Shown here in pieces: positions 21,436 to 38,694 of a stretch of DNA of 41,029 nucleotides; position 1 is the first letter of the stretch; the number at the start of each line of letters is the position of its first letter. A model generated the notes under the pieces. That model saw only the letters and a list, made by a program, of their open reading frames with translations. It searched no databases and had not been told where the DNA came from. The position numbers were made by a program, and so were the translations under genes. The DNA is from a virus: the UHGV virus genome UHGV-0145872. One strand, 5' to 3'.

Positions 21436-21437
21436 CA

Positions 21438-21896
21438 ATGGCTTCCGATAACCTGGTCAGTATCACCATTAACGATAAATCCCTGCGCCGGAGCCTCCGT
21501 GCGCTGGATCTTGCTGCCACAGACCTGGAGCCCGCGATGCGCAAAATCGCCGGAACCCTGCTGGCGGAAACACAGTTTAACTTTCTTGATGAGGGGCGTC
21601 CGGGGTGGATGCCCTCGCTGGCAGCGGAAGAACGTGACGGGCAGACACTGCAGGATACCGGGCGTCTGATGGGGTCAGTATCAACCGACCATGACGACCG
21701 GCAGGCTGTTGTGGGGACCAACGTTGTTTACGGTGCCATTCACCAGTTCGGGGGTAAAACGGGGCGTAATGAGTCTGTTGAACTTCCGGCCCGCCCGTTC
21801 CTGCCGGTGACGGGGGATGGAGAACTACAGCCTGAAGTGGTAATCCCCATCCTCGATACCATTGTCCGCCATCTTGAATCAGCGGCCCGTCGCTGA
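21438..21896 (+). CDS. virion morphogenesis protein (Mu G-like)
   Basis: 152 aa; position between the F-like gene and the I-like protease/scaffold gene. Confidence 0.55.
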   Translation: MASDNLVSITINDKSLRRSLRALDLAATDLEPAMRKIAGTLLAETQFNFLDEGRPGWMPSLAAEERDGQTLQDTGRLMGSVSTDHDDRQAVVGTNVVYGAIHQFGGKTGRNESVELPARPFLPVTGDGELQPEVVIPILDTIVRHLESAARR

Positions 21897-22110
21897 GTTT
21901 TCTCTCTTCAGGCGGGTGATTTATCATTGCCAGAGAATGAGGGGCTGTATTACCTTTATAAAGGCTTTACAGCCTCTGTTTTATAACCGCCTCCGGTTCA
22001 CCGCATTGCTTTCCCTGTCCTTCTCCCCTGATGTTTTCTAAAGCAGATTAAAATCGCCGGGCCTGCATTTCTCACAAACTGTCTCCGACAACATAACGCG
22101 GGACAGCAAA

Positions 22111-23226
22111 ATGTCAGCCATTCACATTTTTAAAGCCGGTACTCATACCGATATGCACGGCAAAAAACTGCCGTTCACGCCAGACGATCTTGCCGCCTGC
22201 GTGAAAGCCTATGACCCGTCCGTCCATGAAGCACCACTCGTGATTGGTCATCCCAGAACGGAAGACCCGGCGTGGGGCTGGGTGAAAGCCCTGTCGCTCA
22301 GCGGCGTCGATCTGATGGCAGAGCCTGCCCAGCTGGACCCGCAGTTTGCTGAGATGGTCACCGACGGACGATTCAAAAAAGTGTCCGCCTCTTTCTACCT
22401 CCCGGATTCACCGTCCAATCCGAAGCCCGGCGTGCTCTACCTTCGCCATGTGGGCTTTCTCGGGGCACAGCCACCTTCCATCAAGGGGCTGAAACAGGTG
22501 TCCTTCAGTGAGCAGGAAGAAGGTGTGGTGGAGTTCGCCGACTGGCAGGCCATCACGAATGCCTCCCTGTGGGGAAAGCTGCGCGATTTTCTGATCGCCC
22601 GCTTCAGTCTGGACGAGGCAGAAAAAGTCCTGCCGGAATGGCAGCTCAACAGTCTGCGCGAAGAGGCGTACCGCGACACACTGTCGCAGGATGCAGCAGG
22701 TGCACAATTCAGTGAGACAGGCCCGGGGCCGTCTTCCGCAAGTAACGAGGAATCATCGATGACAAAAGAAGAGATTGAAACCCTTCAGGAGGAGAACCGC
22801 CGCCTGAAGCAGCAGGCTGCTGATCGCGATGCGCGTGATGCACAGGTCAGACAGGAGCAACTGCATAAGGACAATGTGGCCTTTGCAGAAAAACTGGTCG
22901 CAGAGGGCCGTCTGGCTCCCCGCGCCTCCTCCGTGGTGGTTGCCCTGCTGGATGCCGTCGCCGGTGGCGACAAGCCGGTGGAGTTTGCTGAGGGGGAAAG
23001 CCGCACACCGCTGGCCACCGCCTTTCGTTCATTGCTCTCCGACGGGGAGCCGGTGATGAATTTCGCCGAACAGGCCACAAAAGAGCGTGTCGGCGACACG
23101 GTGAAGGTGGATGTGGCAGAGTTTGCGGAAGCCGATCCTGAGCGTCTGGCCCTGCATCAGAAAGCAGTGGCCCTGTCCAAAAAAGAAGGCATCAGCTATG
23201 AGGCTGCTGTCGCACGCTGCCTGTAA
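22111..23226 (+). CDS. head protease/scaffold protein (Mu I-like)
   Basis: 371 aa; N-terminal domain plus acidic coiled-coil C-terminal half typical of scaffolds; immediately upstream of the major capsid gene. Confidence 0.7.
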   Translation: MSAIHIFKAGTHTDMHGKKLPFTPDDLAACVKAYDPSVHEAPLVIGHPRTEDPAWGWVKALSLSGVDLMAEPAQLDPQFAEMVTDGRFKKVSASFYLPDSPSNPKPGVLYLRHVGFLGAQPPSIKGLKQVSFSEQEEGVVEFADWQAITNASLWGKLRDFLIARFSLDEAEKVLPEWQLNSLREEAYRDTLSQDAAGAQFSETGPGPSSASNEESSMTKEEIETLQEENRRLKQQAADRDARDAQVRQEQLHKDNVAFAEKLVAEGRLAPRASSVVVALLDAVAGGDKPVEFAEGESRTPLATAFRSLLSDGEPVMNFAEQATKERVGDTVKVDVAEFAEADPERLALHQKAVALSKKEGISYEAAVARCL

Positions 23227-23240
23227 TTTAAGGAGAGAGC

Positions 23241-24194
23241 ATGTCTGATTACTTAAAAGGTAAACGTGTCGTTGATCCGGTACTGACCAGTATCGCCCGT
23301 GGCTATAAAAATGCCGCATTCATCGGCGAACGTATTTTCCCCGTCGTGCTGACGGACAAGGAAGGCGTGCGTGTACCGACCTTCGGGAAAACCGCCTTTG
23401 TGGAATATGACACCGAGCGTGCCGTCGGGGCGGACAGCAATGTTCTGGTCCGTGAAAAAACAGGCACGCTGGACCTGGTGCTGGGTGAACACGATCTGGC
23501 TGCGCCGGTGGACTATCGCGAGCAGGCGGAGTCCATGTTTAACGAAGAGAGCAAGGCCATCCGTCGCGCCACGAATGGCGTGAACCTGCGCCGTGAACTT
23601 ATCGCTGCCCGTCTGGCTCAGGATGAAAAGGTCTACCGTACCGGGCACGTCAAAAAACTGACAGCCAGTGATCGCTGGGCCGGTGGTAAGGGGGACCCCA
23701 TCGGGGTGATTGAAGCCGGTATGGAAGCGGTCCGTACGGCCACGGGGCTGCGTCCTAACCTGATGACCATGGGGGCCGGCGTGATGGCGCTGCTGAAGTT
23801 CCACCCGGCGATTCAGGCCGCCATCGGAGCCAACGAACGCAAGCGCATCACCACAGAAATCCTGCAGGACCTCTTTCAGATCGAAGAGATCGTCATCGGT
23901 GCCCCAGTCTCCCTGCCGTCCATGAAAGCGGCAATGGATAAGAACAGCGTGCCGGCGGATATCTGGGGAGACAATCTGATGCTGCACTATGTCGGCAAAC
24001 CGCAGCCGGGGGCGGACAGCGCGGACGAGAACGAGCCGTCCTTCGGCTACACCCTGCGTCGTAAGGGGATGCCTGTTGCCGACAAATACGACGGAGCCGG
24101 TGGCAAGGTGAAGTACTGCCGTTATACCGATATCTACAAAGTCGCCGTGGTTGGTGGCGATGCCGGGTATCTCATTACCGGTATCAGTAAATAA
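23241..24194 (+). CDS. major capsid protein (Mu T-like)
   Basis: 317 aa; strong GGAG RBS; position after protease/scaffold. Confidence 0.75.
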   Translation: MSDYLKGKRVVDPVLTSIARGYKNAAFIGERIFPVVLTDKEGVRVPTFGKTAFVEYDTERAVGADSNVLVREKTGTLDLVLGEHDLAAPVDYREQAESMFNEESKAIRRATNGVNLRRELIAARLAQDEKVYRTGHVKKLTASDRWAGGKGDPIGVIEAGMEAVRTATGLRPNLMTMGAGVMALLKFHPAIQAAIGANERKRITTEILQDLFQIEEIVIGAPVSLPSMKAAMDKNSVPADIWGDNLMLHYVGKPQPGADSADENEPSFGYTLRRKGMPVADKYDGAGGKVKYCRYTDIYKVAVVGGDAGYLITGISK

Positions 24195-24203
24195 GGAGGC
24201 GTT

Positions 24204-24542
24204 ATGGGAACCACTCAGCAGGTCATTCTGATCACAACCGTAACGGCAGGGGCAGCACTGGCACAGCAGCGTTTTGTCGGGGCAGATAATACCCCCTGTA
24301 AAGCCGGTGCCGCAGCGCTCGGGGTTGCCGAAGTGGATGCTGTTACCGGCGACAGCACGCCGGTGAGCGTTCTGGGCATTATTGCTGTCGAGGCCGGGGC
24401 CGCTGTCAGCCGTGGTGTGGCTGTTCAGTCAGATGCTCAGGCCAGAGCCGTGCCGCAGTCCGGCGACGGTAAATCCTGTGGTATTGCACTTGATGAAGCC
24501 GGGGGTGAAGGCGACGTCATTCGTATCCTGCGCGGGGTGTGA
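24204..24542 (+). CDS. small Gly/Ala/Val-rich head protein (DUF2190-like)
   Basis: 112 aa; low-complexity G/A/V-rich composition typical of small head-associated proteins after the capsid gene. Confidence 0.45.
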   Translation: MGTTQQVILITTVTAGAALAQQRFVGADNTPCKAGAAALGVAEVDAVTGDSTPVSVLGIIAVEAGAAVSRGVAVQSDAQARAVPQSGDGKSCGIALDEAGGEGDVIRILRGV

Positions 24543-24543
24543 C

Positions 24544-24990
24544 ATGTACTGCACCCTGGAGGATTTGCTTGCGCAGGTGCCGGAGCGGACGCTTATCGAA
24601 CTCACCAGTGAAGAGATGGACTTCGACTCGCCTGCAACAGTGAATACCCGTGTGGTGGACAGCTGTATCCGCTATGCCGACGAGCTGATTGATGCCCATC
24701 TGCGCGGACGCTATATCCTGCCACTGGCAGAGATACCGACTGTTCTGCGGGACATTGCCATCACGCTGGTCCGTTACCGGCTCTACGCCCGCCGCCCGGA
24801 AGGTGACCTCCCGGATACGGTGAAGGATGACCACAAAGAAGCGCTGCGGCAACTCAGGGAGTTACGTGATAACAGGCTCACGCTGGGGCTGCCGTCCACT
24901 CAGAAAGATGTGCCTGAGCCTGGCGAGTTTCGTGTACGCAGTCGCCCGGCCACTTTCGGCGGTCGTGACGGTTTACTGGAGAAATACTGA
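24544..24990 (+). CDS. head-tail joining protein (Mu gp36 / DUF1320-like)
   Basis: About 148 aa starting at ATG 24544; position and size. Confidence 0.5.
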   Translation: MYCTLEDLLAQVPERTLIELTSEEMDFDSPATVNTRVVDSCIRYADELIDAHLRGRYILPLAEIPTVLRDIAITLVRYRLYARRPEGDLPDTVKDDHKEALRQLRELRDNRLTLGLPSTQKDVPEPGEFRVRSRPATFGGRDGLLEKY

Positions 24991-25454
24991 TGAACGTTCT
25001 GCCCGTCCTTGATGCGGTGCTGGCCCGGTTACGCGAGAAGCTGCCGCAACTGCAGGTGGAGTACTTCCCGGAGAAACCGGCTGAATATCGCCTGAACCAT
25101 CCGGTTGGCGCGTTGCTGCTGAGCTATGCCGGTTCGCGCTTTGACAGGCCGGATGATACCGGTGCGGTGATCCAGTCTCAGACTATCCAGCTCTGCGTCA
25201 CGGTGGTCTTCCGCCAGCTCAACGGTAAAAAAGGGGCGATTAATGTCCTGGATGCTGTCCGCCGCATTCTCGGTGGCCACACCCCGCCCGGGTGCCGCTG
25301 CCGTATCTGGCTGACCCGCGAGGTGTTTATCGGTGAAGTCAGGGGGCTGTGGCAATACGCCCTCGACTTCGCGACTGAAAGCATCTTTATCGAAGACAGC
25401 GATTTACCGTCCGGCCCGCTGTTAACCGAAGTGAACTATGAGGAAAGCGAGTGA
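24990..25454 (+). CDS. head-tail joining protein (Mu gp37-like)
   Basis: 154 aa; translationally coupled to neighbours. Confidence 0.5.
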   Translation: MNVLPVLDAVLARLREKLPQLQVEYFPEKPAEYRLNHPVGALLLSYAGSRFDRPDDTGAVIQSQTIQLCVTVVFRQLNGKKGAINVLDAVRRILGGHTPPGCRCRIWLTREVFIGEVRGLWQYALDFATESIFIEDSDLPSGPLLTEVNYEESE

Positions 25455-25705
25455 TGAAAGAATACCGCTATTCCGGCCCGGCCAGCGGCGTCACGCTGTC
25501 GGACGGAACCGAAATCCTGCTCTGGCCGGGGAAGACGGTTTCCCTGCCGGAGGAGCATGACTACGTGAAGGTACTGGTGGCGCTGAAGCATCTGACGCCG
25601 GTACCAGAAGATACTAAACCCGCCGTCACACCGGCTGTGCAGTCACCAAAGCGCAGAAGCAGCAGTGACAGCGAAGTGAAAACGGAGGACGCCCATGGCA
25701 GCTAA
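25451..25705 (+). CDS. small conserved phage protein (84 aa)
   Basis: ORF translationally coupled between gp37-like gene and sheath gene. Confidence 0.4.
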   Translation: MMKEYRYSGPASGVTLSDGTEILLWPGKTVSLPEEHDYVKVLVALKHLTPVPEDTKPAVTPAVQSPKRRSSSDSEVKTEDAHGS

Positions 25706-27122
25706 CTATCTGCATGGTCCCGAAACCATTGAGGTGGAAAACGGAGCCCGCCCGGTTAAAACGGTGAAATCTGCCGTTATTGGCCTGATTGGTACCGCCC
25801 CGATGGGGGATGTCAATACGCTGGTACAGTGCCTGTCTGAGAAAGACGCAGCGGCATTTGGCAGCCAGTTCACCGGCTTTACCATTCCGCAGGCGCTGGA
25901 TGCGATTTATGACCATGGTGCAGGTACCGTTCTGGTCATTAACGTCCTCGACCCGGCGAAACATAAAACGGCGATCGAGGATGAGGTGGTTACCTTTGAC
26001 AAATCGACAGGGCAGGCCAGACTGGCGCATCCGGTTGTCGCTAATGTGGTGGTGAAAAACAGTGAAGGCAGCACCACCCACACGGCGAACACGGACTACC
26101 GTGTTGATGCGCAGGCGGGTGTGCTCACGAACCTGGGCAAGGCTATTGAGGCCGGTGGCAGCGTGAAGGTGAGCTATGAGTACGCGGACCCGTCGAAGGT
26201 GACTGCGGCGGACATCATCGGCGGGGTGAACAGCGCCGGAAACCGAACCGGCATGAAGCTGCTTAACGACAGCTTCAACCTGTACGGCTATTTCGCCAAA
26301 ATTCTGATTGCGCCGGTGTTCTGCACCCAGAAGAGTGTCGCAGTTGAGCTTATCGCCATGGCAGAGAAGCTGGGCGCGGTAACCTACATTGATGCGCCTG
26401 TCGGTACCACCTTTGCACAGGCTCTGGCAGGTCGTGGCCCGGAAGGCACCATCAACTTCAATACCAGCTCCGACCGCGTCCGTCTGTGCTATCCGCATGT
26501 GAAGGTATATGACCCGGTGACAAACACAGAGCGTCTGGAGCCGCTCAGCCAGCGTGCAGCAGGTCTGCGTGCCAGAGTCGATCTGGACAAGGGCTACTGG
26601 TGGTCATCCTCCAATCAGGAGATTCTGGGGATCACCGGCGTGGAGCGCCAGCTGTCCGCGATGATTGATGACCCGCAGAGTGAGGTGAACCTGCTTAACG
26701 AACAGGGGATCACCACGGTATTCAGCAGTTACGGCAGCGGCCTTCGTCTGTGGGGTAACCGGACGGCAGCATGGCCAACGGTCACCCATATGCGTAACTT
26801 TGAGAACGTTCGCCGCACCGGTGATGTGATCAACGAGTCCATTCGTTATTTCAGCCAGCAGTACATCGACATGCCGATTACTCAGGCGCTGATTGATGCA
26901 CTGACGGAGTCGGTCAACGCCTACGGTCGCAAAATGACTGGTGATGGTGCGGTACTGGGCTTCCGTTGCTGGTTTGATCCGGCCCGCAATCCGGAGACGG
27001 AGCTGGCCGCCGGGCACCTGTTGCTGAGCTACAAATATACGCCACCACCGCCGCTGGAGCGACTGACGTTTGAGACTGAGATCACCTCGGAATACCTGTT
27101 AACCCTGAAAGGGGGCAACTGA
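25695..27122 (+). CDS. contractile tail sheath protein (Mu L-like)
   Basis: 475 aa; followed directly by the tube gene; size typical of sheath proteins. Confidence 0.8.
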   Translation: MAANYLHGPETIEVENGARPVKTVKSAVIGLIGTAPMGDVNTLVQCLSEKDAAAFGSQFTGFTIPQALDAIYDHGAGTVLVINVLDPAKHKTAIEDEVVTFDKSTGQARLAHPVVANVVVKNSEGSTTHTANTDYRVDAQAGVLTNLGKAIEAGGSVKVSYEYADPSKVTAADIIGGVNSAGNRTGMKLLNDSFNLYGYFAKILIAPVFCTQKSVAVELIAMAEKLGAVTYIDAPVGTTFAQALAGRGPEGTINFNTSSDRVRLCYPHVKVYDPVTNTERLEPLSQRAAGLRARVDLDKGYWWSSSNQEILGITGVERQLSAMIDDPQSEVNLLNEQGITTVFSSYGSGLRLWGNRTAAWPTVTHMRNFENVRRTGDVINESIRYFSQQYIDMPITQALIDALTESVNAYGRKMTGDGAVLGFRCWFDPARNPETELAAGHLLLSYKYTPPPPLERLTFETEITSEYLLTLKGGN

Positions 27123-27643
27123 TGTCAAAGATTGAGATAAACCGCATCACGAATGCCAACATCTATCTGGATGGTACTAACCTGCTGGGACGGGCTGAGG
27201 AAGTCAAACTCCCCGATGTCTCCATGATTATGCAGGAACACAAGGCGCTGGGGATGGTGGGTAAGGTGGAACTCCCGGCTGGTTTTGACAAGCTGGAAGG
27301 CGAAATCAAATGGAACAGCTTTTACCGCGATGCGATGCTGTCTGCCGCGAACCCGTACAGGTCGCTGGCACTGCAGTGTCGTTCCAGCGTCCAGCGCTAC
27401 AGCTCGCAGGGGCTGATTGACGAAATCCCGCTGGTCACCTTCCTGACGATTATGTTCAAGAAGAACCCGCTGGGGACGTTCAAACAGCACGAGAACGCCG
27501 AGTTCTCCAGTAGCTTCACCTGCACGTATATCAGACAGGTACTGGATGGTGAAGAGCTGCTGCAACTGGACTATCTGGCCAACATCTTCCGGGTCGGCGG
27601 TGTTGATCAACTGACTGACTACCGTATCAATATCGGGGGCTGA
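27122..27643 (+). CDS. tail tube protein (Mu M-like)
   Basis: 173 aa; immediately after sheath. Confidence 0.7.
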   Translation: MSKIEINRITNANIYLDGTNLLGRAEEVKLPDVSMIMQEHKALGMVGKVELPAGFDKLEGEIKWNSFYRDAMLSAANPYRSLALQCRSSVQRYSSQGLIDEIPLVTFLTIMFKKNPLGTFKQHENAEFSSSFTCTYIRQVLDGEELLQLDYLANIFRVGGVDQLTDYRINIGG

Positions 27644-27645
27644 CG

Positions 27646-27927
27646 GTGAGTGTTGAACTGACGGATAAAGGAGGACGATGTGCGGCACTGGGCATGTCAA
27701 ATGGTACGTGGTTTACCCTCCTTGATATTCCGGGGGTGGAAACCCTTTTTAATACCCGTAAAACCAATGACCCGATTGACTGCACACGTTCAAAGGCCCG
27801 CAAACTGGCGGATTTGATTGAAGCATGGGAGCCTCCCGACCACTGGTTCTCCGGCATCGGCAAATCTGAGGGAAAGACGCTTCTCATCGCTTTCCTGCGT
27901 AACTGCAAGGGGTTTCGCACTTGCTGA
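27646..27927 (+). CDS. hypothetical protein (93 aa, GTG start)
   Basis: ORF between tube and chaperone; no good RBS/start; may not be real. Confidence 0.25.
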   Translation: MSVELTDKGGRCAALGMSNGTWFTLLDIPGVETLFNTRKTNDPIDCTRSKARKLADLIEAWEPPDHWFSGIGKSEGKTLLIAFLRNCKGFRTC

Positions 27928-28024
27928 CATCACAGGGGCTCCGGCCCCTTCTTCTTAATCTCCTTTAATATCCGTCACGCGCTTCTCCCGACATACTGCC
28001 CTGAACTTACACAGGAGCACAATC

Positions 28025-28360
28025 ATGTCACAGACCCCATCCGATACTTTTAAATTGTCTTATCCCTTCACCACTGCTGCAGGCACCAGAATTGAGCTGG
28101 TTGAACTGAAACGCCTGACGGTAAAAGACCTGAAGCAGGTGCGCAAAATCAGCAAAAACCCGGCAGACTGGGACGAACCGCTGATTGCCCGCAGTACTGG
28201 TCTTCTCCCGGAAGATCTCGACAATATGGATCTGGCTGATTACCTGCAGTTACAGAAACGATTTCAGCTCATCACGGGGATGGGTGAGAGCAACCAGGGC
28301 GCTGACGCAGGCGCAGGGGCTGCTGGCGAGATGGTTCCGGTTTCAGCCGGGGGAGATTGA
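28025..28360 (+). CDS. tail assembly chaperone (111 aa)
   Basis: Small acidic protein between tube and tape measure; overlapped by a second frame, the usual two-frame chaperone arrangement. Confidence 0.55.
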   Translation: MSQTPSDTFKLSYPFTTAAGTRIELVELKRLTVKDLKQVRKISKNPADWDEPLIARSTGLLPEDLDNMDLADYLQLQKRFQLITGMGESNQGADAGAGAAGEMVPVSAGGD

Positions 28361-28442
28361 TGCCCTCGATACTGACGATCTGGAGATGTGGCTGGAGCAG
28401 GCTGAAGAGCAAATCAAAAGCGAGTACGGCGACAAATCATAG
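28025..28442 (+). CDS. tail assembly chaperone, frameshift-extended form (putative +1 shift near 28349-28353)
   Basis: Frame 0 ORF (28185..28442) overlaps the 3' half of the chaperone and runs 82 nt past its stop; a GGGGG tract at 28349-28353 just before the stop would allow a +1 slip (GGG to GGG) joining ...SAG to EIDALDTDDLEMWLEQAEEQIKSEYGDKS. Confidence 0.35.
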
Positions 28443-28517
28443 TACAGACAGCCGCCAGTAGCGGCTGTTCTGCGTTATCCCCTCACGTCTTTTCACCTTC
28501 CCCGGAGGTTAACCACT

Positions 28518-31500
28518 ATGTCGGGACAGTTTTCAGTCGGCGTTGTTATCGGCGGGATGATTGGCAGCACATTCCGTTCTGCAATGAGCGGTACCCGCCG
28601 TGCGCTTGATTCCCTGAGCGATACCTCACGCCGCCTGCAGGAACGTCAGAACGCTTTAACCCGTGCAACAGAACGTTATGGTCAACTGGGTTCTTCCCGG
28701 ATGCAGCATCTCAACAGCGAGCTGCTGCGGGTAAGCCGCACCATGGAGCAAATTGAGCGCCAGCAGCGCCGTCTGTCAGCGGCATCCGCTACCAGTGATG
28801 CGCTGAAAGCTAACCGCATGGCGCTGTATGGTCAGGGGATTGAAGCGTATGGCATGGCACAGACTGTTTATCATACGGTTTCCCCTGCCGTTCAGCAGTC
28901 CATGTCTTTTCAGGACAAAATGATTGATATGTCGATCACCGCAAAATATGACAATAAAACGCGGGATGCACTTGCCGGACAGATAAAAGGCTGGGCGCTT
29001 AAATACAATCAGTATCAGGATGAGCTGCAGGAGGCGGTGGGTTCACTCATCAGCGACAATATTGATAATGTGTCAGATATCGGTTTTCTGATGCCGGATA
29101 TTGCCCGCGCGGCAACGGCAACACGCACGTCTGCTCAGGACTGGGCAAAAGTGGCCGCAGTCTGGCAAAACTCCCTGAAAGGTGCGGCCAGAGATTTTGG
29201 TGCCGTTCAGAATATTATGGCTTATGCCGGTGACCAGGGGTCATTTGAAATCCCGGATCAGGTCAAGTGGATGCAGTCCCTGGCCCCAATGATGGCGGGT
29301 CTTGCCAGTGGAAAAGAGGCTGTTGCTGAAATCGGGGCCAGTCTCCAGATAGCAAAAATCGGTGCAGGTTCCACCGACGAAGCAGCCAATAATTTTAAAA
29401 ACTTTCTTACCAAAATTTTTGCCCGCGATACTCAGAAACAGTTTGCTGATCTGGGTATTGATTTGCAGGGATCTATTGCGAGTTATAAAGCTGCGGGGAT
29501 CTCTCCGATTGAAGGGATGTTGAGTGTTATAGAACGTTACCTCAATGCCAAAAGCCCCGAAGCGCTGGCCGGCTTCAAATCAGCCATGAAAATAAAGAAT
29601 GATACGGCAAGAGATGAGGCACTTCAGGCTCTGGCGAAAAACTTTGGTCTGGGCGATATGTTCGCGGATATGCAGGTCATGGCATTTATCCGCCCGATGC
29701 TGGCCAACATGGACAGATATCGAGAGATCCGTGCCGGTGCTCTCAGGGCTGCGGATAACGATTTGCTTGCCAGTGCTTATGATCAGCGGCTGAAATCTCC
29801 CCTTGAAGCCACTAAAACACTTATGGTCAGCAGTCGCGATCTGGCAATTACGCTGGGCGATCAATTAGCTCCATCTTTTATTTCTCTGACTCAGGAACTG
29901 CTCCCACTCATTCAGGGGACAAAACACTGGGTAGCGACTCACCCGCAATTTGTCAGTGGGGCTTTTAAGCTCATCAGTGCGCTCCTTGCGATTAAGATAG
30001 CGACTATTGGTCTCAAACTGGGGCTGAATCTCCTTATTTCCCCCTTTGTGAACGTCTGGAAAACTACTGTTTTACTCCGGACCAACTGGCATCGACTGAC
30101 TACCGCACTCGGAGAAGGTGGCAAATTACGCTGGCTTGTCACTGGATTCAGCCGACTGACCAGCGGAGGACTGAAACTCAGCAAAGTTCTGGCGGGCAGC
30201 CTCGTTCGCGGTTTTATGAGCGCTGCACGTGCCGTTCTCTGGATTGGGCGAGCGCTGATGATGAATCCCATCGGTCTCGTTATCACCGCTGTCGCGACAG
30301 CAGCTTACCTTATCTACCGCAACTGGGGGGCTGTCAGTGGTTGGTTTAAACAGCGCTGGGCTGACATTCAGGAAGCCTTTAACGGCGGCATTGTGGGAAT
30401 TGGTAAGTTGCTGATTAACTGGTCGCCGGCAGGCCTGCTCTATAAAGCCTTTGCGGCTGCGCTGAAATATTTCGGCGTTGCTCTGCCGGCAAAGTTCACC
30501 GACTTCGGTGGCCATCTTATCGACGGTCTGATTAACGGTATCAAAAACAAATGGGGGTCGCTCAAATCCAGTGTAACCGGAATGGGTGACAGCATCAGTA
30601 GCTGGTTTAAACAGCGCTGGGCTGACATTCAGGAAGCCTTTAACGGCGGCATTGTGGGAATTGGTAAGTTGCTGATTAACTGGTCGCCGGCAGGCCTGCT
30701 CTATAAAGCCTTTGCGGCTGCGCTGAAATATTTCGGCGTTGCTCTGCCGGCAAAGTTCACCGACTTCGGTGGCCATCTTATCGACGGTCTGATTAACGGT
30801 ATCAAAAACAAATGGGGGTCGCTCAAATCCAGTGTAACCGGAATGGGTGACAGCATCAGTAGCTGGTTTAAACAGTGCTGGGCTGACATTCAGGAAGCCT
30901 TTAACGGCGGTATCGCGGGAACTGGTAAGCTGCTGATTAACTGGTCGCCGGCAGGTCTGCTCTATAAAGCCTTTGCAGCTGCGCTGAAATATCTTGGTGT
31001 TGATCTGCCGGCAAAGTTCACCGACTTCGGTGGCCATCTTGTCGACGGTCTGATTAACGGTATCAAAAACAAATGGGAGTCGCTCAAATCCAGTGTAACC
31101 GGAATGGGTGACAGCATCAGTGGCTGGTTCAGCGAAAAGCTGGGCATTCATTCGCCGAGCCGCGTGTTTATGGGCTTTGGTGACAATATCGCGCAGGGGG
31201 CCGCCATTGGCCTGCAGCGGACCACTCCGCTTGCAGCTCTGGCCGGGCAGCGAATGGCCAGTGAACTGCTCCCCAGAATGCCCGTGAGCATTCAGGGGCC
31301 AGAAATACGGGATAACACTTCAGGTGTTCGCTTCAGTATGCCGTTGCCCGATATCAATGGGTTTATGTCGTCTGCTAAAAATGCGATCGGAGCCGTAATC
31401 AATAGTTTGTCTTCCATGCCCGTTATTCCGCTCTCCACCCGGGCATCGATTTTACCAGGGCAACGTCTGGCAAATGAGATGACACCGGATGTTCCCCGTA

Positions 31501-31730
31501 TCCCCTCGCCTGAAATCCTGGCTGCCGGATATTCAGGCCGTGGTGCAGCTGCAACCGGCGGTGGAACGTCTGGTGGTATCCAGGTCAGCTTTAATCCTCA
31601 GTTTTTCCTCAATGGCAGGGAAACCACAGCGCCTGCAGGACTGACTGGTGCCCTGAATATGAGTCTGCATGAGCTGGAAAAAATGCTGGAGCGTCTGCTG
31701 GCTCAGAAACAACGTAAGGAGTACCGCTGA
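28518..31730 (+). CDS. tail tape measure protein (1070 aa)
   Basis: Large alpha-helical protein downstream of sheath, tube and chaperone; GGAGG RBS; contains an internal tandem repeat. Confidence 0.85.
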   Translation: MSGQFSVGVVIGGMIGSTFRSAMSGTRRALDSLSDTSRRLQERQNALTRATERYGQLGSSRMQHLNSELLRVSRTMEQIERQQRRLSAASATSDALKANRMALYGQGIEAYGMAQTVYHTVSPAVQQSMSFQDKMIDMSITAKYDNKTRDALAGQIKGWALKYNQYQDELQEAVGSLISDNIDNVSDIGFLMPDIARAATATRTSAQDWAKVAAVWQNSLKGAARDFGAVQNIMAYAGDQGSFEIPDQVKWMQSLAPMMAGLASGKEAVAEIGASLQIAKIGAGSTDEAANNFKNFLTKIFARDTQKQFADLGIDLQGSIASYKAAGISPIEGMLSVIERYLNAKSPEALAGFKSAMKIKNDTARDEALQALAKNFGLGDMFADMQVMAFIRPMLANMDRYREIRAGALRAADNDLLASAYDQRLKSPLEATKTLMVSSRDLAITLGDQLAPSFISLTQELLPLIQGTKHWVATHPQFVSGAFKLISALLAIKIATIGLKLGLNLLISPFVNVWKTTVLLRTNWHRLTTALGEGGKLRWLVTGFSRLTSGGLKLSKVLAGSLVRGFMSAARAVLWIGRALMMNPIGLVITAVATAAYLIYRNWGAVSGWFKQRWADIQEAFNGGIVGIGKLLINWSPAGLLYKAFAAALKYFGVALPAKFTDFGGHLIDGLINGIKNKWGSLKSSVTGMGDSISSWFKQRWADIQEAFNGGIVGIGKLLINWSPAGLLYKAFAAALKYFGVALPAKFTDFGGHLIDGLINGIKNKWGSLKSSVTGMGDSISSWFKQCWADIQEAFNGGIAGTGKLLINWSPAGLLYKAFAAALKYLGVDLPAKFTDFGGHLVDGLINGIKNKWESLKSSVTGMGDSISGWFSEKLGIHSPSRVFMGFGDNIAQGAAIGLQRTTPLAALAGQRMASELLPRMPVSIQGPEIRDNTSGVRFSMPLPDINGFMSSAKNAIGAVINSLSSMPVIPLSTRASILPGQRLANEMTPDVPRIPSPEILAAGYSGRGAAATGGGTSGGIQVSFNPQFFLNGRETTAPAGLTGALNMSLHELEKMLERLLAQKQRKEYR
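30342..31124 (+). repeat. 3 x 261 bp in-frame tandem repeat inside tape measure gene
   Basis: TGGTTTAAACAGCGCTGGGCTGACATTCAGG... unit starts at 30342, 30603 and 30864; copies 1 and 2 appear identical and copy 3 differs at a few positions; encodes three 87 aa repeats. Confidence 0.85.
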
Positions 31731-32614
31731 TGTTTGCCGTACTGGGTGATATTGAGTTTGAGCTGATTACCTACTGGGACGGCTTCGAGGCCACGTTCGG
31801 CGTCGATTATGCGGAGCATGCCCGCATCGGGGGTAAGCCTGGCCTGCAGTTCGTCGGCGACAGGCTGGACGAAATCCAGATAACTCTGGTTTTCCATCAG
31901 CATTATTGTGTACCCGATGTGGAGCTGGCGAGACTGCGAACAGCCATGAAAGCCCATCAGGCACTGGCGCTGGTCTTCGGCAACGGTGACTATCGCGGCT
32001 GGTTCGTGATTACCGATGTGACTGCAACCAGCGAGCAGACTGACAGTACCGGCAACGTGCTGGCTGTCAGTGCCACCGTGTCTCTCCGGGAATACACCGG
32101 TGACCCGAAAAATCCTCTGCAACCACCGGCAATACGCACGAAGCTCCCGGGTGTCGGGGCGGTCTCCGGTGCCATTCCTTCACCTTCCGGGGTGGCGCAG
32201 TTCATCCGCAACGGCGTCAACTATGCGAAACAGGCGCAGTCTGTACTCCAGACCACTATCAGCGCCGTTCGAGTGACACAGAAAATGAAGGATAACCCCG
32301 TTGTCGCACTGACCCGTGTGCCGGGGCTGATGAGCGGACTGGGTAATATCTCCGGGGCTCTGGGGAAAAGTGTTCCGGCGTTTAACGCACTCTCTGAATC
32401 CATGCCCGATGCCATCAGTCTGGCCAGAACAGCCAGCGAAGCAGCCACGTATGTACAGCAGGCACAGTCTGCGCTGAGTGGTGTGGACAAAAGAAATATT
32501 GCAGGTGCTCTGGATACCGTTTCCGGGCAGCTTAACGCCGTCGGAACAGCATTCAACCGCATGTCTCCGGGATTAAGTGCAATGGCCGCCAGAATACTGA
32601 CGAGGAGTGTGTGA
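31730..32614 (+). CDS. tail protein (positional analogue of Mu N / DNA circularisation protein)
   Basis: 294 aa; start overlaps the tape measure stop; position. Confidence 0.45.
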   Translation: MFAVLGDIEFELITYWDGFEATFGVDYAEHARIGGKPGLQFVGDRLDEIQITLVFHQHYCVPDVELARLRTAMKAHQALALVFGNGDYRGWFVITDVTATSEQTDSTGNVLAVSATVSLREYTGDPKNPLQPPAIRTKLPGVGAVSGAIPSPSGVAQFIRNGVNYAKQAQSVLQTTISAVRVTQKMKDNPVVALTRVPGLMSGLGNISGALGKSVPAFNALSESMPDAISLARTASEAATYVQQAQSALSGVDKRNIAGALDTVSGQLNAVGTAFNRMSPGLSAMAARILTRSV

Positions 32615-32826
32615 TGTTTCTTGAACATGTTACCCGTGACGGAGAGCGCTGGGATTCGCTGGCATGGCAGTACTACGGTGACCCGCTGGGCTATCCCCGG
32701 ATTATTGCCGCCAATCCGCACGTGGCCATCACGCCGGTGCTGCCCTCCGGGCTGTTGTTACTGATCCCGGTGATTGAGGCTGAAGAAGCCCGTACAGAAG
32801 AGGATATTGCCCCATGGCTGAGATAA
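32611..32826 (+). CDS. tail protein X-like (P2 gpX family, LysM-like)
   Basis: 71 aa; motif GERWDSLAWQYYGDPLGYPRIIAANPHV...LPSGLLLLIPV matches the gpX pattern (GDTLD...YYG...ANP...LP.G) as I recall it. Confidence 0.6.
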   Translation: MMFLEHVTRDGERWDSLAWQYYGDPLGYPRIIAANPHVAITPVLPSGLLLLIPVIEAEEARTEEDIAPWLR

Positions 32827-33986
32827 ACAGCACTGCGCAAGTCACATCAGCGTTAACCGGCGTCAGCGATGTGCTGACACCGGTGTTCACTCTGTGGTAT
32901 CTGCAGAAAAACATCACCTCTGATATCGCGCCTTATGTCACCCGTGTGACCTGGAGCGATAACATCAAAAATGAGTCCGATACCATTGAGGTGGAGCTGG
33001 ACGACACCGATGGCCGCTGGCTGGATAAGTGGTATCCGGGCAAGGGTGACACGCTGACGCTGAAAATGGGCTATCAGGACGAGAAGCTGCTGTCCTGCGG
33101 TACGTTCTCTATAGACGAGATCGAAGTGAGTTCGCCCGCTTCCGTTGTTTCTATCCGTGGGGTGGCCACCTCGGTTAACAGTGCCCTGCGGACTAAAACC
33201 AGTCGTGGTTTTGAGAACACCACGCTGGCAGCTGTTGCGGGGCGGATTGCCAGAAAGCACCGGCTGAAACTGGTGGGCAGCATTGAGTCCATCAGAATCG
33301 ACCGGGTGACCCAGTATGCTGAAACCGACGTGGGTTTTCTGCGCCGGCTGGCCAGCGAGTATGGTTATGCAGTGAAAGTGGTCAGTGACCAGCTGATTTT
33401 TTCTCATCTGGCCACACTGCGCAGTCAGGAGCCGGTCAGGCAGTTAAAACCGCAGGATGTGGCCCGCTTTTCCCTGCGTGACACCATCAACCGGGTCTAT
33501 AAATCTGCAAAGGTAAAACACCAGAAAAGCAGCAGTAAAAAACTGATCGTCTACGAAGCTGATGGTGGTACCCGTGAAAGCGACAAAAAGCTCAAAGGTG
33601 GTAAGGTTACCAGCGCTGACTCACTTAAAGTTAACAGCCGCGTCAGCGACCCGGACAGTGCCCGGATTAAAGCGGATTCAGCACTGGCCAGACATAACGA
33701 ATACCAGCAGAACGGCTCCCTGACGCTGACGGGAACACCTCAACTGACAGCAGGCAACAAAATTGAACTGGTGGGTTTTGGGCAGTTATCCGGGCCATGG
33801 CTCATAACCACTGCCCGCCATGCGTTTGACCGTAACAGCGGCTACACCACAGAGCTGGAAGTGGCACGGGGGCCGATCACACAGGGCAAGGCGAAGAAAG
33901 GTAAAAAAATCGGCAAAACCCGGATGCTGACCATCTATAAACCGGACGGCAGCACGTCCACAGTAATAAGAGAGAAGAAAAAATGA
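32814..33986 (+). CDS. baseplate hub / tail protein D-like (Mu P / P2 gpD family)
   Basis: 390 aa; position after gpX-like and before the spike gene. Confidence 0.65.
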   Translation: MAEINSTAQVTSALTGVSDVLTPVFTLWYLQKNITSDIAPYVTRVTWSDNIKNESDTIEVELDDTDGRWLDKWYPGKGDTLTLKMGYQDEKLLSCGTFSIDEIEVSSPASVVSIRGVATSVNSALRTKTSRGFENTTLAAVAGRIARKHRLKLVGSIESIRIDRVTQYAETDVGFLRRLASEYGYAVKVVSDQLIFSHLATLRSQEPVRQLKPQDVARFSLRDTINRVYKSAKVKHQKSSSKKLIVYEADGGTRESDKKLKGGKVTSADSLKVNSRVSDPDSARIKADSALARHNEYQQNGSLTLTGTPQLTAGNKIELVGFGQLSGPWLITTARHAFDRNSGYTTELEVARGPITQGKAKKGKKIGKTRMLTIYKPDGSTSTVIREKKK

Positions 33987-34579
33987 CTGGTGTCACTCGT
34001 CAGGTCGGTACGGTCAGTGCCGTTGATGCCGACAGGGTTCAGGCCCGCGTTCGTCTGCCTGAATGCGATAACCTGCGCACAAACTGGCTTAACGTGCTGC
34101 AGCGCAATACCCAGGATAACAAAGATTACTGGCTCCCTGACGTGGGGGAGCAGGTTGAGGTGCTGCTCGATGCCAACGGCGAGGATGGTGTTATTCTGGG
34201 CGCGGTGTATTCAGACGTCGATAAACCACCGTTCAGTGACAAAAATATCCGGGGAACCCGGTTTGCTGATGGTGCAGAGTACAGCTACAACCGGAAGACG
34301 CACACTCTGATCATCCGGGGCGGCATTGAGCATATTGTCATTGAGTGTGGTGCTGATGTGGTATTGAAAACACAGAAAGCCACGATTGACGCACCGGAAA
34401 CCGAACTTACCGGAGATCTGCGTGTCAGGGGTAAGCTGATTTACGAAGGAGGCATGGCGGGTTCTGGTGGTGAAGGTGTTACCGCGACCATCCATGGCAA
34501 TATCGAGATTAAAGGGAATGCCCATGCCACGGGCAGTATGTTGTCTGATGGCGAAAACTCCAGCCACCACTCCCACTGA
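33983..34579 (+). CDS. baseplate spike protein (P2 gpV / Mu gp45-like)
   Basis: 198 aa; N-terminal OB-fold-like segment (GTVSAVDADRVQARVRLPE...NWLNVLQ) typical of gpV-type spikes; gene order. Confidence 0.7.
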   Translation: MTGVTRQVGTVSAVDADRVQARVRLPECDNLRTNWLNVLQRNTQDNKDYWLPDVGEQVEVLLDANGEDGVILGAVYSDVDKPPFSDKNIRGTRFADGAEYSYNRKTHTLIIRGGIEHIVIECGADVVLKTQKATIDAPETELTGDLRVRGKLIYEGGMAGSGGEGVTATIHGNIEIKGNAHATGSMLSDGENSSHHSH

Positions 34580-34633
34580 GCTTTTTAAACGCCTTTAATA
34601 TCAGCGTTCCCGCACGGGGGCAATACTGCCCCC

Positions 34634-34981
34634 ATGAAAACAACCTCAGTATTCTGGCAACCGACCCTGCAGGCTCCCGGCGAAATTGTCCGGGGGCTGG
34701 ATGATATCCGGCAGGCGATTCAAATTATCCTGCGGACTCCCCGCGGCAGCGACCCGCATCGCCCGGAGTTCGGCAGCAATCTGCATCTTTATATCGACTG
34801 GCCTGTAGACCGGGCCATTCCGCATGTGGTGCGCGAATCCGTCGATGCCATCCGACGCTGGGAGCCCCGCTGCCAGCTTATGTCAGTTAAACCCGCCGTC
34901 GACGGCGAACATCTTACGCTCCGGGTGAGCTGGAAAGGCTCAGACGGACAGACCCGGACTCAGGAGTTGCTATGGCGCTGA
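34634..34981 (+). CDS. baseplate wedge protein (gpW / T4 gp25-like)
   Basis: 115 aa; motif GLDDIRQAIQIILRTPRGSDPHRPEFGSNL matches the gp25/gpW family pattern (recalled). Confidence 0.7.
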   Translation: MKTTSVFWQPTLQAPGEIVRGLDDIRQAIQIILRTPRGSDPHRPEFGSNLHLYIDWPVDRAIPHVVRESVDAIRRWEPRCQLMSVKPAVDGEHLTLRVSWKGSDGQTRTQELLWR

Positions 34982-36075
34982 CAGAACCCGATTTTATTGA
35001 ACGCGATGCCGACAAAATCACGGCAGAAATGATTGCGAAGTATGAAGCGGATACCGGCAAAACGCTGTACCCGGCACAGGCAGAACGTCTGCTGATTGAT
35101 CTGTGGGCCTATCGCGAAATGCTGGTCAGGGTTGCGGTACAGGAGGCAGCAAAGCAGAATCTGGTCGCCTTTTCACGAGAGCCGATGATTGATTACCTCG
35201 GAGAACTGGTTGGTGTATACCGCCTTGCCGCGCAGCCTGCCACCACCACACTTCAGTTCTCTGTGGATGAGGCACTGACCATTGATGTGCTGATCCCGGC
35301 AGGCACCCGCGTCAGCGCTTCCGACAGCGTTATTTTTGCCACCGATACAGATGTGGTACTGAAGGCCGGATTGCTGCTGGTCAATGTCACGTCCACCTGT
35401 ACCGAACCCGGTACCGCTGGTAACGGCTGGCAACCTGCGCAGGTCAGTCAGTTACTCGATGAGATTGATAACGTCGACCTGCTGGTGAGCAATCTGACGG
35501 CCAGTTCCGGCGGTTCAGAACAGGAAGACGATGACAGGCTCCGGGAGCGTATCAGGCTGGCCCCGGAGTCATTCACCAATGCCGGAAGCCGTGGCGCATA
35601 CCGCTTTCATGCCATGCAGGCCCATCCCAACATTGTCGATGTTGCTGTGCTTTCCCCGGTTCCCGGGACCGTAGATCTGTATCCGCTGCTCAGTACCGGT
35701 CTGCCGGACGGCGGTGTTCTCACGCTGGTAGAGAGTTTCTGCTCTGATGAGAAAGTCAGGCCACTCACTGATACAGTGCGGGCTAAAACACCAGTGAAGG
35801 TGGATTACACCATTGAAGCCAGGATTACGATCTATCGTGATCAGGATGCCAGGTCTGTAAAAGATGCCGCTAACAGCGCCATACAGAACTGGGTGGCATC
35901 ACGTGCCGCCACGCTGGGGCGTGATATTGTCCCCAGCCAGATTATCAGTGCATTGTCCGTTTCCGGGGTGTACCAGGTTGAACTGGTGACACCGGCACTG
36001 AGGGTGGTGGCAGAAAACGAATGGGCAAACTGTACGGCGATCACACTTAACATGAGTGGAGTGTCTGATGACTGA
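34972..36075 (+). CDS. baseplate J-like protein (Mu gp47 family)
   Basis: 367 aa; follows gpW-like gene with overlapping start. Confidence 0.7.
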   Translation: MALTEPDFIERDADKITAEMIAKYEADTGKTLYPAQAERLLIDLWAYREMLVRVAVQEAAKQNLVAFSREPMIDYLGELVGVYRLAAQPATTTLQFSVDEALTIDVLIPAGTRVSASDSVIFATDTDVVLKAGLLLVNVTSTCTEPGTAGNGWQPAQVSQLLDEIDNVDLLVSNLTASSGGSEQEDDDRLRERIRLAPESFTNAGSRGAYRFHAMQAHPNIVDVAVLSPVPGTVDLYPLLSTGLPDGGVLTLVESFCSDEKVRPLTDTVRAKTPVKVDYTIEARITIYRDQDARSVKDAANSAIQNWVASRAATLGRDIVPSQIISALSVSGVYQVELVTPALRVVAENEWANCTAITLNMSGVSDD

Positions 36076-36646
36076 GCCATTACAACTCCCGCCACCGCTT
36101 GAGGGTGATATCAGTCTCAGGACGCTGGGAAGACTGGCAGGGCGGCTGGATAACATCGACCTGAGCGTACTGATGGTCTTTCTCGTCGATATCGTCGACA
36201 GTTCTGCGCTGCCATGGCTGGGCGAGCAGTTCTCACTGTCTGGCGATGGCTGGGAGCTGGCGGAATCGGACGATGTTCGCCGCATGCTTATAAAAGCAGC
36301 CATCGAACTACACCGGTATAAAGGGACGCCGTGGTCAATCCGGGAAGTTATCCGCCGTTTTGGCTTTGGTGAAGTGGATCTGATTGAAGGCACAGGTCGT
36401 CTCAGTTACGACGGCAATCGCAGCTATAACGGACTGTTTGTTCATGGAGATGCAGCCGCCTGGGCGGTTTATCGCGTTATTCTGAAACAGCCCATTACTA
36501 ACGATCAGGCCGCGATGCTGCGTCAGACGCTCGCTGCATTTGCACCGGCCCGCTGCCATCTGGCCAGCCTGGAGTATCAGTCTGTGGCCATTCGCTATAA
36601 CAATACCGCCATCCATGATGGCAGTTATAACCACGGGAGCAGTTGA
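36056..36646 (+). CDS. tail protein I-like (P2 gpI / Mu gp48 family)
   Basis: About 190 aa; position between baseplate J and tail fibre; likely start at ATG about 36068. Confidence 0.55.
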   Translation: MECLMTEPLQLPPPLEGDISLRTLGRLAGRLDNIDLSVLMVFLVDIVDSSALPWLGEQFSLSGDGWELAESDDVRRMLIKAAIELHRYKGTPWSIREVIRRFGFGEVDLIEGTGRLSYDGNRSYNGLFVHGDAAAWAVYRVILKQPITNDQAAMLRQTLAAFAPARCHLASLEYQSVAIRYNNTAIHDGSYNHGSS

Positions 36647-38073
36647 TTATGGGAAACCTGAATGAAACAGAAAAGTGGGAAGAAAAAATCTATCAACTGG
36701 AGACATCAGATCCGGTTCTGGGTGGTGCTGACGGGATATCAAATCGAGCCCCCCGGCAACTGGCAAACAGGACGAAATGGCTGAAGAAAAAAACGGAGGA
36801 AGCCGCACAGTCACTGGCTGAACACGTACGTTCCCGTAACCACCCGGACGCGACACTGACAGCTAAGGGGTTCACCCAACTGAGCAGTGCCACCAACAGC
36901 ACCTCTGAAACGCTGGCCGCCACACCAAAAGCCGTCAAGGCTGCATACGACCTTGCAGCCGGCAAGGCACCCGTCAGTCACACTCACCCGTGGAGTCAGA
37001 TAACGGGAGTGCCTGCTGCCTCGCTGACGGCAAAAGGCACCGTACAACTGAGCAGCGCCACGGACAGTCAATCAGAAACTGAGGCTGCCACGCCGAAGGC
37101 TGTGAAAATCGCGTATGATCTGGCCCGGGGAAAATACACAGCCCAGGATGCAACAACGACCCGTAAAGGGATCGTACAACTGAGCAGTGCCACCAACAGC
37201 ACCTCTGAAACGCTGGCCGCCACACCAAAGGCCGTCAAGGCTGCATATGACCTGGCTGCCGGCAAGGCCCCCGTCAGCCACACTCACCCGTGGAGTCAGA
37301 TAACGGGAGTGCCTGCTGCCTCGCTGACGGCAAAAGGCACCATACAATTGAGCAGTGCCATCAACAGCACGTCTGAAATACTGGCCGCCACACCGAAAGC
37401 GGTCAAGGCTGCATACGATCTGGCAAACGGAAAACAACCGGCAGATGCCACGCTCACTGCTCTGGCAGGACTTGCCACTGCAGCAGATCGGTTGCCTTAT
37501 TTTACCGGAGCAGACCGCGCAGCGCTGGCAACCCTTACAGCTATTGGTCGCGCTATTATCGCTAAGGGCAGTATAAAAGATGTCCTCAATTACCTTGGTT
37601 TGGGGGAAGGCTCTGCATTGCCTGTTGGTGTGCCTGTTCCGTGGCCCACCGCCACACCGCCAGCAGGCTGGTTACAGTGCAACGGAGCTACGTTCACCAA
37701 AGAACAATATCCTGTTCTGGCCAGAGTCTACCCGACCCTCCGTCTTCCCGATTTACGCGGTGAGTTTATCCGTGGATGGGACGACGGGCGCAAGATTGAC
37801 GAGGGGCGTAAGTTGCTTTCATGGCAGAAAGGTACACTGGTCGGCGGTCATGACGATAACGATTCTTCGCTGGATATCTCGTACATGAGTAACGGAAATA
37901 ATATTGACTATGGCGGCGATAAGGTGTTTGCGGGGAATTACCGTAGCGATTATTTGTGGTACGCAATTCTGGGTGGAACAAACAGTCGCGCAAAAGCCGA
38001 ATTAAACGGAGCATTCTTTAACATAACCCGCCCCCGCAATATCGCGTTTAACTATATCGTGAGGGCGGCGTGA
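36643..38073 (+). CDS. tail fibre protein: constant shaft with repeats plus currently fused C-terminal collar-domain cassette 1
   Basis: 476 aa; repeated fibre motif (QLSSATNSTSETLAATPKAVKAAYDLA) three to four times; C-terminal about 150 aa beginning PVPWPTATPPAGWLQCNG...YP.L...LPDLRGEFIRGWDDGR resembles the phage tail-collar receptor-binding domain. Confidence 0.8.
   Translation: MIMGNLNETEKWEEKIYQLETSDPVLGGADGISNRAPRQLANRTKWLKKKTEEAAQSLAEHVRSRNHPDATLTAKGFTQLSSATNSTSETLAATPKAVKAAYDLAAGKAPVSHTHPWSQITGVPAASLTAKGTVQLSSATDSQSETEAATPKAVKIAYDLARGKYTAQDATTTRKGIVQLSSATNSTSETLAATPKAVKAAYDLAAGKAPVSHTHPWSQITGVPAASLTAKGTIQLSSAINSTSEILAATPKAVKAAYDLANGKQPADATLTALAGLATAADRLPYFTGADRAALATLTAIGRAIIAKGSIKDVLNYLGLGEGSALPVGVPVPWPTATPPAGWLQCNGATFTKEQYPVLARVYPTLRLPDLRGEFIRGWDDGRKIDEGRKLLSWQKGTLVGGHDDNDSSLDISYMSNGNNIDYGGDKVFAGNYRSDYLWYAILGGTNSRAKAELNGAFFNITRPRNIAFNYIVRAA
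36878..37350 (+). repeat. about 170 bp near-identical direct repeats (period 300 bp) within tail fibre shaft
   Basis: 36878-37050 and 37178-37350 differ at only a few positions; encode repeated fibre motifs. Confidence 0.7.
37583..37608 (-). other. candidate invertase crossover site A (12-2-12, inside tail fibre gene)
   Basis: Minus strand reads TTCCCCCAAACC-AA-GGTAATTGAGGA; left half matches the hix/gix/cix-like half-site pattern TTxxCxxAAACC; lies at the constant/variable junction of the fibre. Confidence 0.55.
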
Positions 38074-38079
38074 TACCGT

Positions 38080-38694
38080 TCAGCTGGCAAGTGCCAGTGG
38101 CGCTTCCGGCCAGCTGATTTCAGGTGCCGTGCTGATATCCAGTGCGTTCAGCTCGTCGATATAATCCAGCACGGCGTTCAGTTTTGCCGTTTCTTCTGGT
38201 GTCAGACTGCGACCAGCACGCAGTTTGAGGTTGATAAGATCGACGGACGCCATCGCCTGTTTCACCCGTTGCTGGCGTTGCTGTCTGGCAACCTCCAGTT
38301 CTGCGGCTCGCTGCCGTTCAGTATCGGTTACCCACGCCTCACCGTTCCAGGTATCCCATGGCGTGGCCGGCTGTTTTGTGGTGGTGTCCGCCGGGTAATC
38401 ACCCGGTTGGGTAATCAGAACGGGGTTACCGTTCTCCGTGCTGTATACCGTCTCGCCGCGGTGATCAGGCACATGCTCCCACCCGTTCAGCGTGGCAGTC
38501 CGGCAAACCACGTAACCCGAAATTGCCTCCGGCGGTGCATCGGCGCACGAATGTGCCGGAGTACCCACCCCAAGGGCGAGATACTCCACAGAGGATGAGG
38601 TGTATTCCCGGGTTTCCTCGTCATAGTGATATACAGTGATCTCGCCCGCTACAGTGGCGATACCGTTTTCATCCAGAACTGCAGTGTTACTCAT
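38080..38694 (-). CDS. tail fibre assembly protein (Tfa / Mu U family)
   Basis: 204 aa; C-terminal LNAVLDYIDELNALDISTAPEISWPEAP is the conserved Tfa-family tail; translationally coupled to cassette 2 on the minus strand. Confidence 0.75.
   Translation of the reverse strand: MSNTAVLDENGIATVAGEITVYHYDEETREYTSSSVEYLALGVGTPAHSCADAPPEAISGYVVCRTATLNGWEHVPDHRGETVYSTENGNPVLITQPGDYPADTTTKQPATPWDTWNGEAWVTDTERQRAAELEVARQQRQQRVKQAMASVDLINLKLRAGRSLTPEETAKLNAVLDYIDELNALDISTAPEISWPEAPLALAS

Follow-up and report, generated by a model that had tools for sequence, protein, structure and literature searches.

The present study analyzes a tandem repeat in the gene that encodes the tape measure protein (TMP) of a viral genome, UHGV-0145872; the window referred to throughout is the whole stretch of 41,029 nucleotides. 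A transposase, a MuB-like ATPase, a Mu-type portal and genes for sheath, tube, gpU, X and D identify it as a Mu-like transposable prophage whose contractile tail is of P2 type, and it further encodes a tail fibre, a fibre assembly protein and a resolvase-family invertase. The genes and segments that bear on the repeat are these.

7403–8596, minus strand: AAA+ MuB-like ATPase (AAA_22; Pfam profile)
8580–10349, minus strand: DDE (rve) transposase (Pfam profile)
19137–20633: Mu-type portal (Portal_Mu; Pfam profile)
25695–27122, plus strand: contractile tail sheath (PF04984/PF17482)
27122–27643, plus strand: tail tube (PF04985)
28025–28360, plus strand: tail assembly chaperone of gpE type, upstream of the TMP gene (PF10109 Phage_TAC_7)
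28518–31730, plus strand: TMP gene, 1070 aa, intact ORF (ORF list and translation; PF10145 PhageMin_Tail; RefSeq homologue)
29949–30041, plus strand: hydrophobic TMP segment, residues 478–508 (Kyte-Doolittle scan)
30255–30314, plus strand: second hydrophobic TMP segment, residues 580–599, adjoining the array on its upstream side (Kyte-Doolittle scan)
31730–32614, plus strand: gpU-like tail protein, directly downstream of the TMP gene (PF06995 Phage_P2_GpU)
32814–33986: gpD homologue

The TMP gene lies where its family would place it, after the tube and chaperone and before the baseplate/hub genes. This gene order (sheath, tube, gpE-type chaperone, TMP, gpU, X, D), together with the match of residues 159–340 to PF10145 at 74.6 bits (cut-off 33.2, E = 1.3e-20), confirms the original prediction that the repeat is in a tape measure gene. 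The identical protein in RefSeq, WP_001529030.1, is named "phage tail tape measure protein", and PF10145 was present in all of at least 120 homologues among the matches listed. A single-sequence AlphaFold2 model of TMP residues 495–935 was mostly helix by DSSP, at very low confidence (mean pLDDT 41).

Among deposited phages the nearest is Escherichia phage PhiKM (PQ738613, Bcepmuvirus; uropathogenic E. coli), with 97.9% identity over the TMP gene. Compared with E. coli strain 2016C-3878, the late structural region of the window (17659–37360) has 99.5% identity, whereas the early and regulatory region (9783–17067) is mosaic, with 80–97% identity and gaps, which is the usual modular exchange of temperate phages. 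The segment at 37595–39214, holding the C-terminus of the tail fibre and the fibre assembly genes, matches the same strain at 99.4% but in inverted orientation and adjoins a resolvase-family (Gin/Cin-like) invertase gene at 39663–40313; judged from this arrangement it appears to be an invertible host-range switch like the G segment of Mu, lying in opposite orientations in the window and in 2016C-3878.

Results

The array in the window

Tandem Repeats Finder, applied to positions 28000–34000, returned one array only, with 96% matches, 0 indels and a score of 1473, and a second repeat search gave three 261-nt copies with identities of 100, 99 and 94%. The array resolves into the following parts.

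30334–31129, plus strand: tandem array, period 261 nt, 3.05 copies (Tandem Repeats Finder; position-by-position comparison at an offset of 261 nt)
30334–30346, plus strand: 13-nt motif TCAGTGGTTGGTT, encoding S-G-W-F, at the array start (sequence)
30336–30596, plus strand: unit 1, residues 607–693, type A (codon register and translation; A-type at 15/15 diagnostic sites)
30597–30857, plus strand: unit 2, residues 694–780, a B/A chimera whose unit position 6 is B-type and whose positions from 21 on are A-type; the young copy (diagnostic-site table)
30858–31118, plus strand: unit 3, residues 781–867, type B (diagnostic sites, comparison with unit 2)
31117–31129, plus strand: downstream copy of the 13-nt S-G-W-F motif, TCAGTGGCTGGTT, at the end of the periodicity (sequence)

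The period equals 3 x 87, and within the 1070-aa ORF at 28518–31730 the array keeps the reading frame, so that the three in-frame 87-aa repeats claimed at the outset are indeed there. The accompanying description of a perfect 3 x 261 bp repeat is right for two of the copies: in the register used for that claim, 30342–31124, copies 1 and 2 have 0 differences, but copy 3 differs from each of them at 15/261 positions (94.3% identity). In the codon register unit 3 differs from unit 2 by 14 nt and 7 aa, and unit 2 matches unit 1 exactly when compared from 30342 on. The longest stretch that is repeated exactly runs to 273 nt, with 30342–30614 identical to 30603–30875, a length that rules out chance as an explanation. 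Sequence one period (261 nt) upstream and downstream of the array showed no relation to the unit, and the downstream S-G-W-F motif falls exactly one period after the last unit. An antisense ORF of 341 aa on the minus strand (30126–31151) spans the entire array. It was dismissed as a gene, with nothing pointing to one; it is a by-product of the repeat, stop-free because the same stop-free frame occurs three times.

Copy number in related genomes and proteins

A query built from nothing but the upstream and downstream 1-kb flanks of the array was run against 5,426 complete E. coli genomes, replacing coverage statistics for the three-copy counts because BLAST joined pieces of two-copy genomes. 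Matches were found in 636 genomes, 587 of them full length, and copy number was read from the span of the match in an evenly spaced sample of the full-length rows (n = 55).

Span 2796 nt: three copies, 14/55 genomes
Span 2535 nt: two copies, 39/55 genomes
Span 2274 nt: one copy, 2/55 genomes

Strains of O25b:H4-ST131 fall in the two-copy group. Near-isogenic carriers include TUM14759, AVS0947 and IPCEC48 for one copy, AR_0058 and other ST131 strains for two, and 2016C-3878, EC11 and M-17 for three. A synthetic one-copy query gave a single uninterrupted match in 17 complete genomes, 3 sharing an identical junction and 12 a second allele type. Comparison of TMP length among related prophages, the check that had been proposed, gave the same three alleles: the close homologues in the protein database (more than 100) have 1070, 983 or 896 aa, corresponding to three, two and one units, for example WP_001529030.1 (1070 aa), WP_000016538.1 (983 aa) and WP_032190072.1 (896 aa). 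There was no four-copy allele (1157 aa) among the top-scoring database proteins or in the 55-genome sample. The window's three-copy stretch of 1901 nt was found as a single ungapped piece, at 99.9% identity, in at least 40 independent complete genomes, with carriers from humans, cattle, chicken meat and wastewater and a probiotic strain, and the three-copy allele also occurred in variants with 0.6–0.75% flank divergence.

Outside this group of prophages one unit is the rule. Relatives from about 14 other genera have one unit each (Intestinirhabdus, Trabulsiella, Mixta, Pantoea, Pseudocitrobacter, Erwinia, Buttiauxella, Limnobaculum, Xenorhabdus, Brenneria, Dickeya, Apirhabdus and Symbiopectobacterium among them), as does a more distant E. 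coli prophage. The ancestral number of units is one, so the array is longer by 174 residues than in one-copy relatives and by 87 than in the two-copy allele from which it directly arose, and not by the 261 that had been predicted.

Two candidates for higher copy number were rejected. The protein P0001 (1084 aa, on a 22.8-kb contig) is not a four-copy allele but a two-copy one with a separate 101-aa tandem duplication; that duplication takes in the second hydrophobic segment together with the unit's first 27 residues, and is a single observation on a single contig. Genome H99, in which only the upstream flank matched, does not have more than five copies but an IS3 insertion in unit 1 of a three-copy allele. 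The IS3-family element, at 7051–8264 of locus L006 (NZ_CM128543), lies in the first unit of a three-copy TMP gene, which it inactivates. Contigs deposited as "Arthrobacter sp." GMC3 and Y81 (L014, L034 and L036; coverage 1–7x) carry the prophage gene at 96–99% identity and are almost certainly contaminated assemblies containing an E. coli prophage gene.

Unit types and exchange points

We compared 25 units from 11 alleles, all of them intact ORFs and the three-copy ones 1070 aa long. There are two unit types, separated by 15 diagnostic sites, with type A always in first position and type B always in last. Units in the same position in different lineages were more alike than A and B within one allele, with flanks differing by up to about 4.5% (109/2430), and between A and B dS was 0.13–0.15 and dN 0.036–0.041, giving a dN/dS of about 0.28. 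From this position-wise likeness, the synonymous divergence and the low ratio it follows that the A/B duplication is old and that both copies are constrained, i.e. under purifying selection.

The remaining units are chimeras of the two types. In the middle unit of the window, and of alleles L007 and L008, the switch from B to A lies between unit positions 6 and 21, while in L005 and L012 the middle unit stays B-type to 67 and is A-type from 75. The one-copy allele L003 is A-type to 75 and B-type from 101, and its flanks are identical to those of the ST131-type two-copy allele; the one-copy allele L004 is A-type to 101 and B-type from 122 and has private variants in common with L010. Expanded alleles thus contain an internal B/A chimera and contracted alleles the reciprocal A/B chimera, exactly the pattern expected of unequal homologous exchange between A and B or, equivalently, of slippage by one period. 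Because the breakpoints differ among the three-copy and among the one-copy alleles, the array must have grown on at least two independent occasions and shrunk on at least two others, which bears out the view of the locus as recombination-prone. The further claim of a very recent expansion holds insofar as the third copy is young by comparison with the A/B pair (0 versus 15/261 differences), but the expansion is not private to the window, being present in dozens of complete genomes. Short B-type patches within the A units of L002, L009 and L007 indicate gene conversion as well.

The pair of S-G-W-F motifs is 13/13 identical in the one-copy E. coli alleles, where it brackets the unit, and a similar pair is found in single-copy relatives of other genera. 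It is plausible from the sequences that this 13-nt microhomology seeded the first duplication.

The one-copy allele L003 comes from AVS0947 (4,978,191 bp), and a second genome, H63 (CAVp367, 4,978,172 bp), has two units, with the prophage at nearly the same coordinate. Either the array contracted very recently or one of the two assemblies has collapsed it. The one-copy junction of AVS0947 recurs in two other genomes.

Conservation of the unit

The unit sits in a conserved block of the protein (residues about 494–725), with a mean identity across genera of 64% compared with 45% upstream, and the unit itself is 86–89% identical in TMPs that are otherwise about 54% identical. A search with one unit against 1.84 billion representative proteins gave 577 matches, many of them TMP-sized and with 2–4 tandem copies, at periods of 76, 87, 105 or 113–114 residues; given these many tandem matches, duplication of the module is a recurrent theme in this protein family.

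Discussion

Patterns detected are best explained by genuine in-frame variation in the number of copies of a conserved 87-residue module of the TMP in a Mu-like E. coli prophage, which changes the length of the molecular ruler and would change the length of the tail with it, a reading to which we give a probability of roughly 0.8. In the history that we propose, the wider family has one unit between short direct repeats encoding S-G-W-F, and an old duplication in the E. coli lineage produced the diverged pair A-B. The window allele, A-(B1–6|A21–261)-B, then arose from A-B through an exchange located between unit positions 6 and 21, either an unequal crossover between homologous units or slippage during replication. 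Every exchange stays in frame because the period is a multiple of three, and the locus therefore drifts among one, two and three copies in the population. The copy change was presumably RecA-mediated, driven by a phage recombinase or due to slippage, and it is parsimony that favors a direction from two copies to three rather than from three to two.

The tie between TMP length and tail length is established for lambda and TP901-1 (PMC3271669), and for T4 the same is stated in a citation, reference 13 in PMC13585406. In TP901-1, a TMP lacking 347 aa gave a tail of 65 nm instead of 118 nm, or about 0.15 nm per residue (PMC5099701, Table 1). In the window, sheath and tube are the parts whose length the TMP would govern. 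At that rate of 0.15 nm each extra unit of 87 residues would add about 13 nm of tail, and the 896-, 983- and 1070-aa alleles would be predicted to have tails of about 134, 147 and 160 nm. A disc of a contractile sheath is about 4 nm high, so 13 nm is roughly three to four discs.

The closest parallels are engineered TMP deletions and duplications, in which there is the same internal in-frame gain or loss and a proportional tail change is expected at about 0.15 nm per residue; the examples are lambda gpH (Katsura and Hendrix 1984), the TP901-1 TMP (Pedersen 2000; Mahony 2016, PMC5099701) and T4 gp29 (Abuladze 1994). Unlike those constructs, the alleles described here are natural ones that segregate among prophages of completely sequenced E. 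coli strains, the phage being Mu-like with a contractile tail of P2 type, and they are known from sequence. Belcaid et al. (2011, PMC3271669) described natural tandem repeats in TMPs, made of 11-aa units in which W/F keep fixed positions. As in those repeats, there is gain and loss of tandem units in a TMP, and orthologous units are closer than paralogous ones so that the history can be reconstructed; the difference is that here the unit is domain-sized (87 aa) and conserved, is present in 1–3 copies, and has undergone very recent events with mappable exchange points. We rejected the array as a member of the class of 11- (or 18-)residue W/F repeats, as autocorrelation at lag 11 was not significant in the whole protein (z = 0.9), the region (z = 1.7) or the unit (z = 1.2), and Tandem Repeats Finder gave a period of 261 only. 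The top W/F lags were 31 and 34, with z of at most 2.8.

Nearer at hand, PhiKM and the prophages of ST131 and other E. coli belong to the same family and have the same gene, with 96–100% identity outside the array, the ST131-type prophages having two units as opposed to the window's three. Distant TMPs (P0122, P0123, P0124 and others) have the same module of about 80 aa in 2–4 tandem copies just before the conserved C-terminal part. These modules have 40–50% identity to the query and are old, and since their periods differ (76, 87, 105 and 113–114 aa) the repeats are independent duplications with other boundaries. Literature searches found no paper on this TMP polymorphism, and those directed at PhiKM/Bcepmuvirus and at the TMP of the ST131 Mu-like prophage found nothing specific to the phage or the polymorphism.

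Because it belongs to a conserved block and comes directly after the second hydrophobic segment, the unit may do more than provide spacing, and extra copies might not translate linearly into length. One extension of the ruler reading, which we regard as doubtful, is that the module would be a conserved, domain-sized "ruler cassette" repeatedly duplicated by tailed phages, both here and independently in distant TMPs with periods of 76, 87 and 113 residues. In this very common E. coli prophage, the ST131 lineage included, recombination between cassettes would then act as a fast and reversible switch of tail length, kept by selection and not by neutral drift, for example to suit the thickness of capsule or O-antigen. 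If this is true, nature has supplied a near-isogenic series of one, two and three copies in which the adaptive value of tail length is directly testable.

An alternative explanation could be that the unit is a functional domain and not a segment of the ruler, for example a docking site for the gpE/E+E' chaperone or a part of the membrane-penetrating region beside the hydrophobic segments, and that copy number would alter dosage or valency with little or no proportional effect on the length of the tail. The place of the unit in the protein, its retention at 86–89% in otherwise divergent TMPs, the dN/dS of about 0.28 between A and B and the tandem repetition of homologous modules in many distant TMPs (periods 76, 87 and 113–114 aa) are all consistent with this. 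We nevertheless consider it unlikely, because gain or loss of internal TMP residues has brought a proportional change of the tail in every system tested, deletions in hydrophobic regions of the TP901-1 TMP included (PMC5099701). A role as a domain and a role in the ruler are, moreover, not mutually exclusive.

Another source for the third copy, or for the exact match between copies 1 and 2, could be mis-assembly or short-read polishing, which could make copies uniform. Short-read assembly does fail at this locus: in PhiKM the array is interrupted by 100 Ns and the annotation of the CDS reads "disrupted by sequencing gap", and many homologues in the database are "partial" proteins whose ends lie in the repeat, so that the suspicion of an assembly-collapse site was well founded for short reads. 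With its exact repeat of 273 nt, an A-A-B allele would be expected to collapse to A-B or to break the contig, and some one-copy alleles from hybrid assemblies could in principle be collapses. Collapse, however, takes copies away and does not add them. Over-assembly is improbable because the same array, in one ungapped piece, recurs in dozens of complete genomes; about a quarter of the sampled carriers have three copies, and the chimeric middle unit matches the biological prediction. As an artefact normally lowers the count, three copies is if anything a lower bound. The window's own three copies are read from its assembly and from its complete-genome relatives, and we judge it very unlikely that they are an artefact. 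The three-copy TMP genes of L005 (685–3897) and, at the same coordinates, of L007, L008 and L012 are called pseudogenes by NCBI PGAP ("incomplete; partial in the middle of a contig"); on intact ORFs of 1070 aa this label is an artefact of the annotation, to which the repeat gives rise.

Neutral decay in a defective prophage that makes no virions, with copy changes of no functional consequence, might be suggested by the in-frame state, which is automatic for a 261-nt period and hence no evidence of selection, and by the one carrier with an IS3 element in the array, but it is highly improbable given that 11/11 alleles examined are intact, that A and B are under purifying selection, that the whole late operon shows 99.5% conservation and no interruption when set against another strain, and that PhiKM, of the same phage family, was deposited as an isolate.

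The favored reading, a change of ruler length by gain and loss of a conserved module, thus describes a kind of variation that is real but ordinary; the phenomenon was to be expected and this polymorphism is a new example of it. In practical terms, short-read assemblies break or collapse at this locus, and automated annotation by PGAP calls intact three-copy genes pseudogenes. For the biology of these phages, the locus is a clean natural example of how a TMP gene changes length, with a conserved module, flanked by 13-nt microhomology, that underwent one duplication and whose copies are now gained and lost through homologous exchange at mappable breakpoints. Near-isogenic prophages with rulers of 896, 983 and 1070 residues exist in sequenced and available E. 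coli strains, and the allelic series could be used to determine tail length per residue in a contractile Mu-like phage and to relate tail length to host range.
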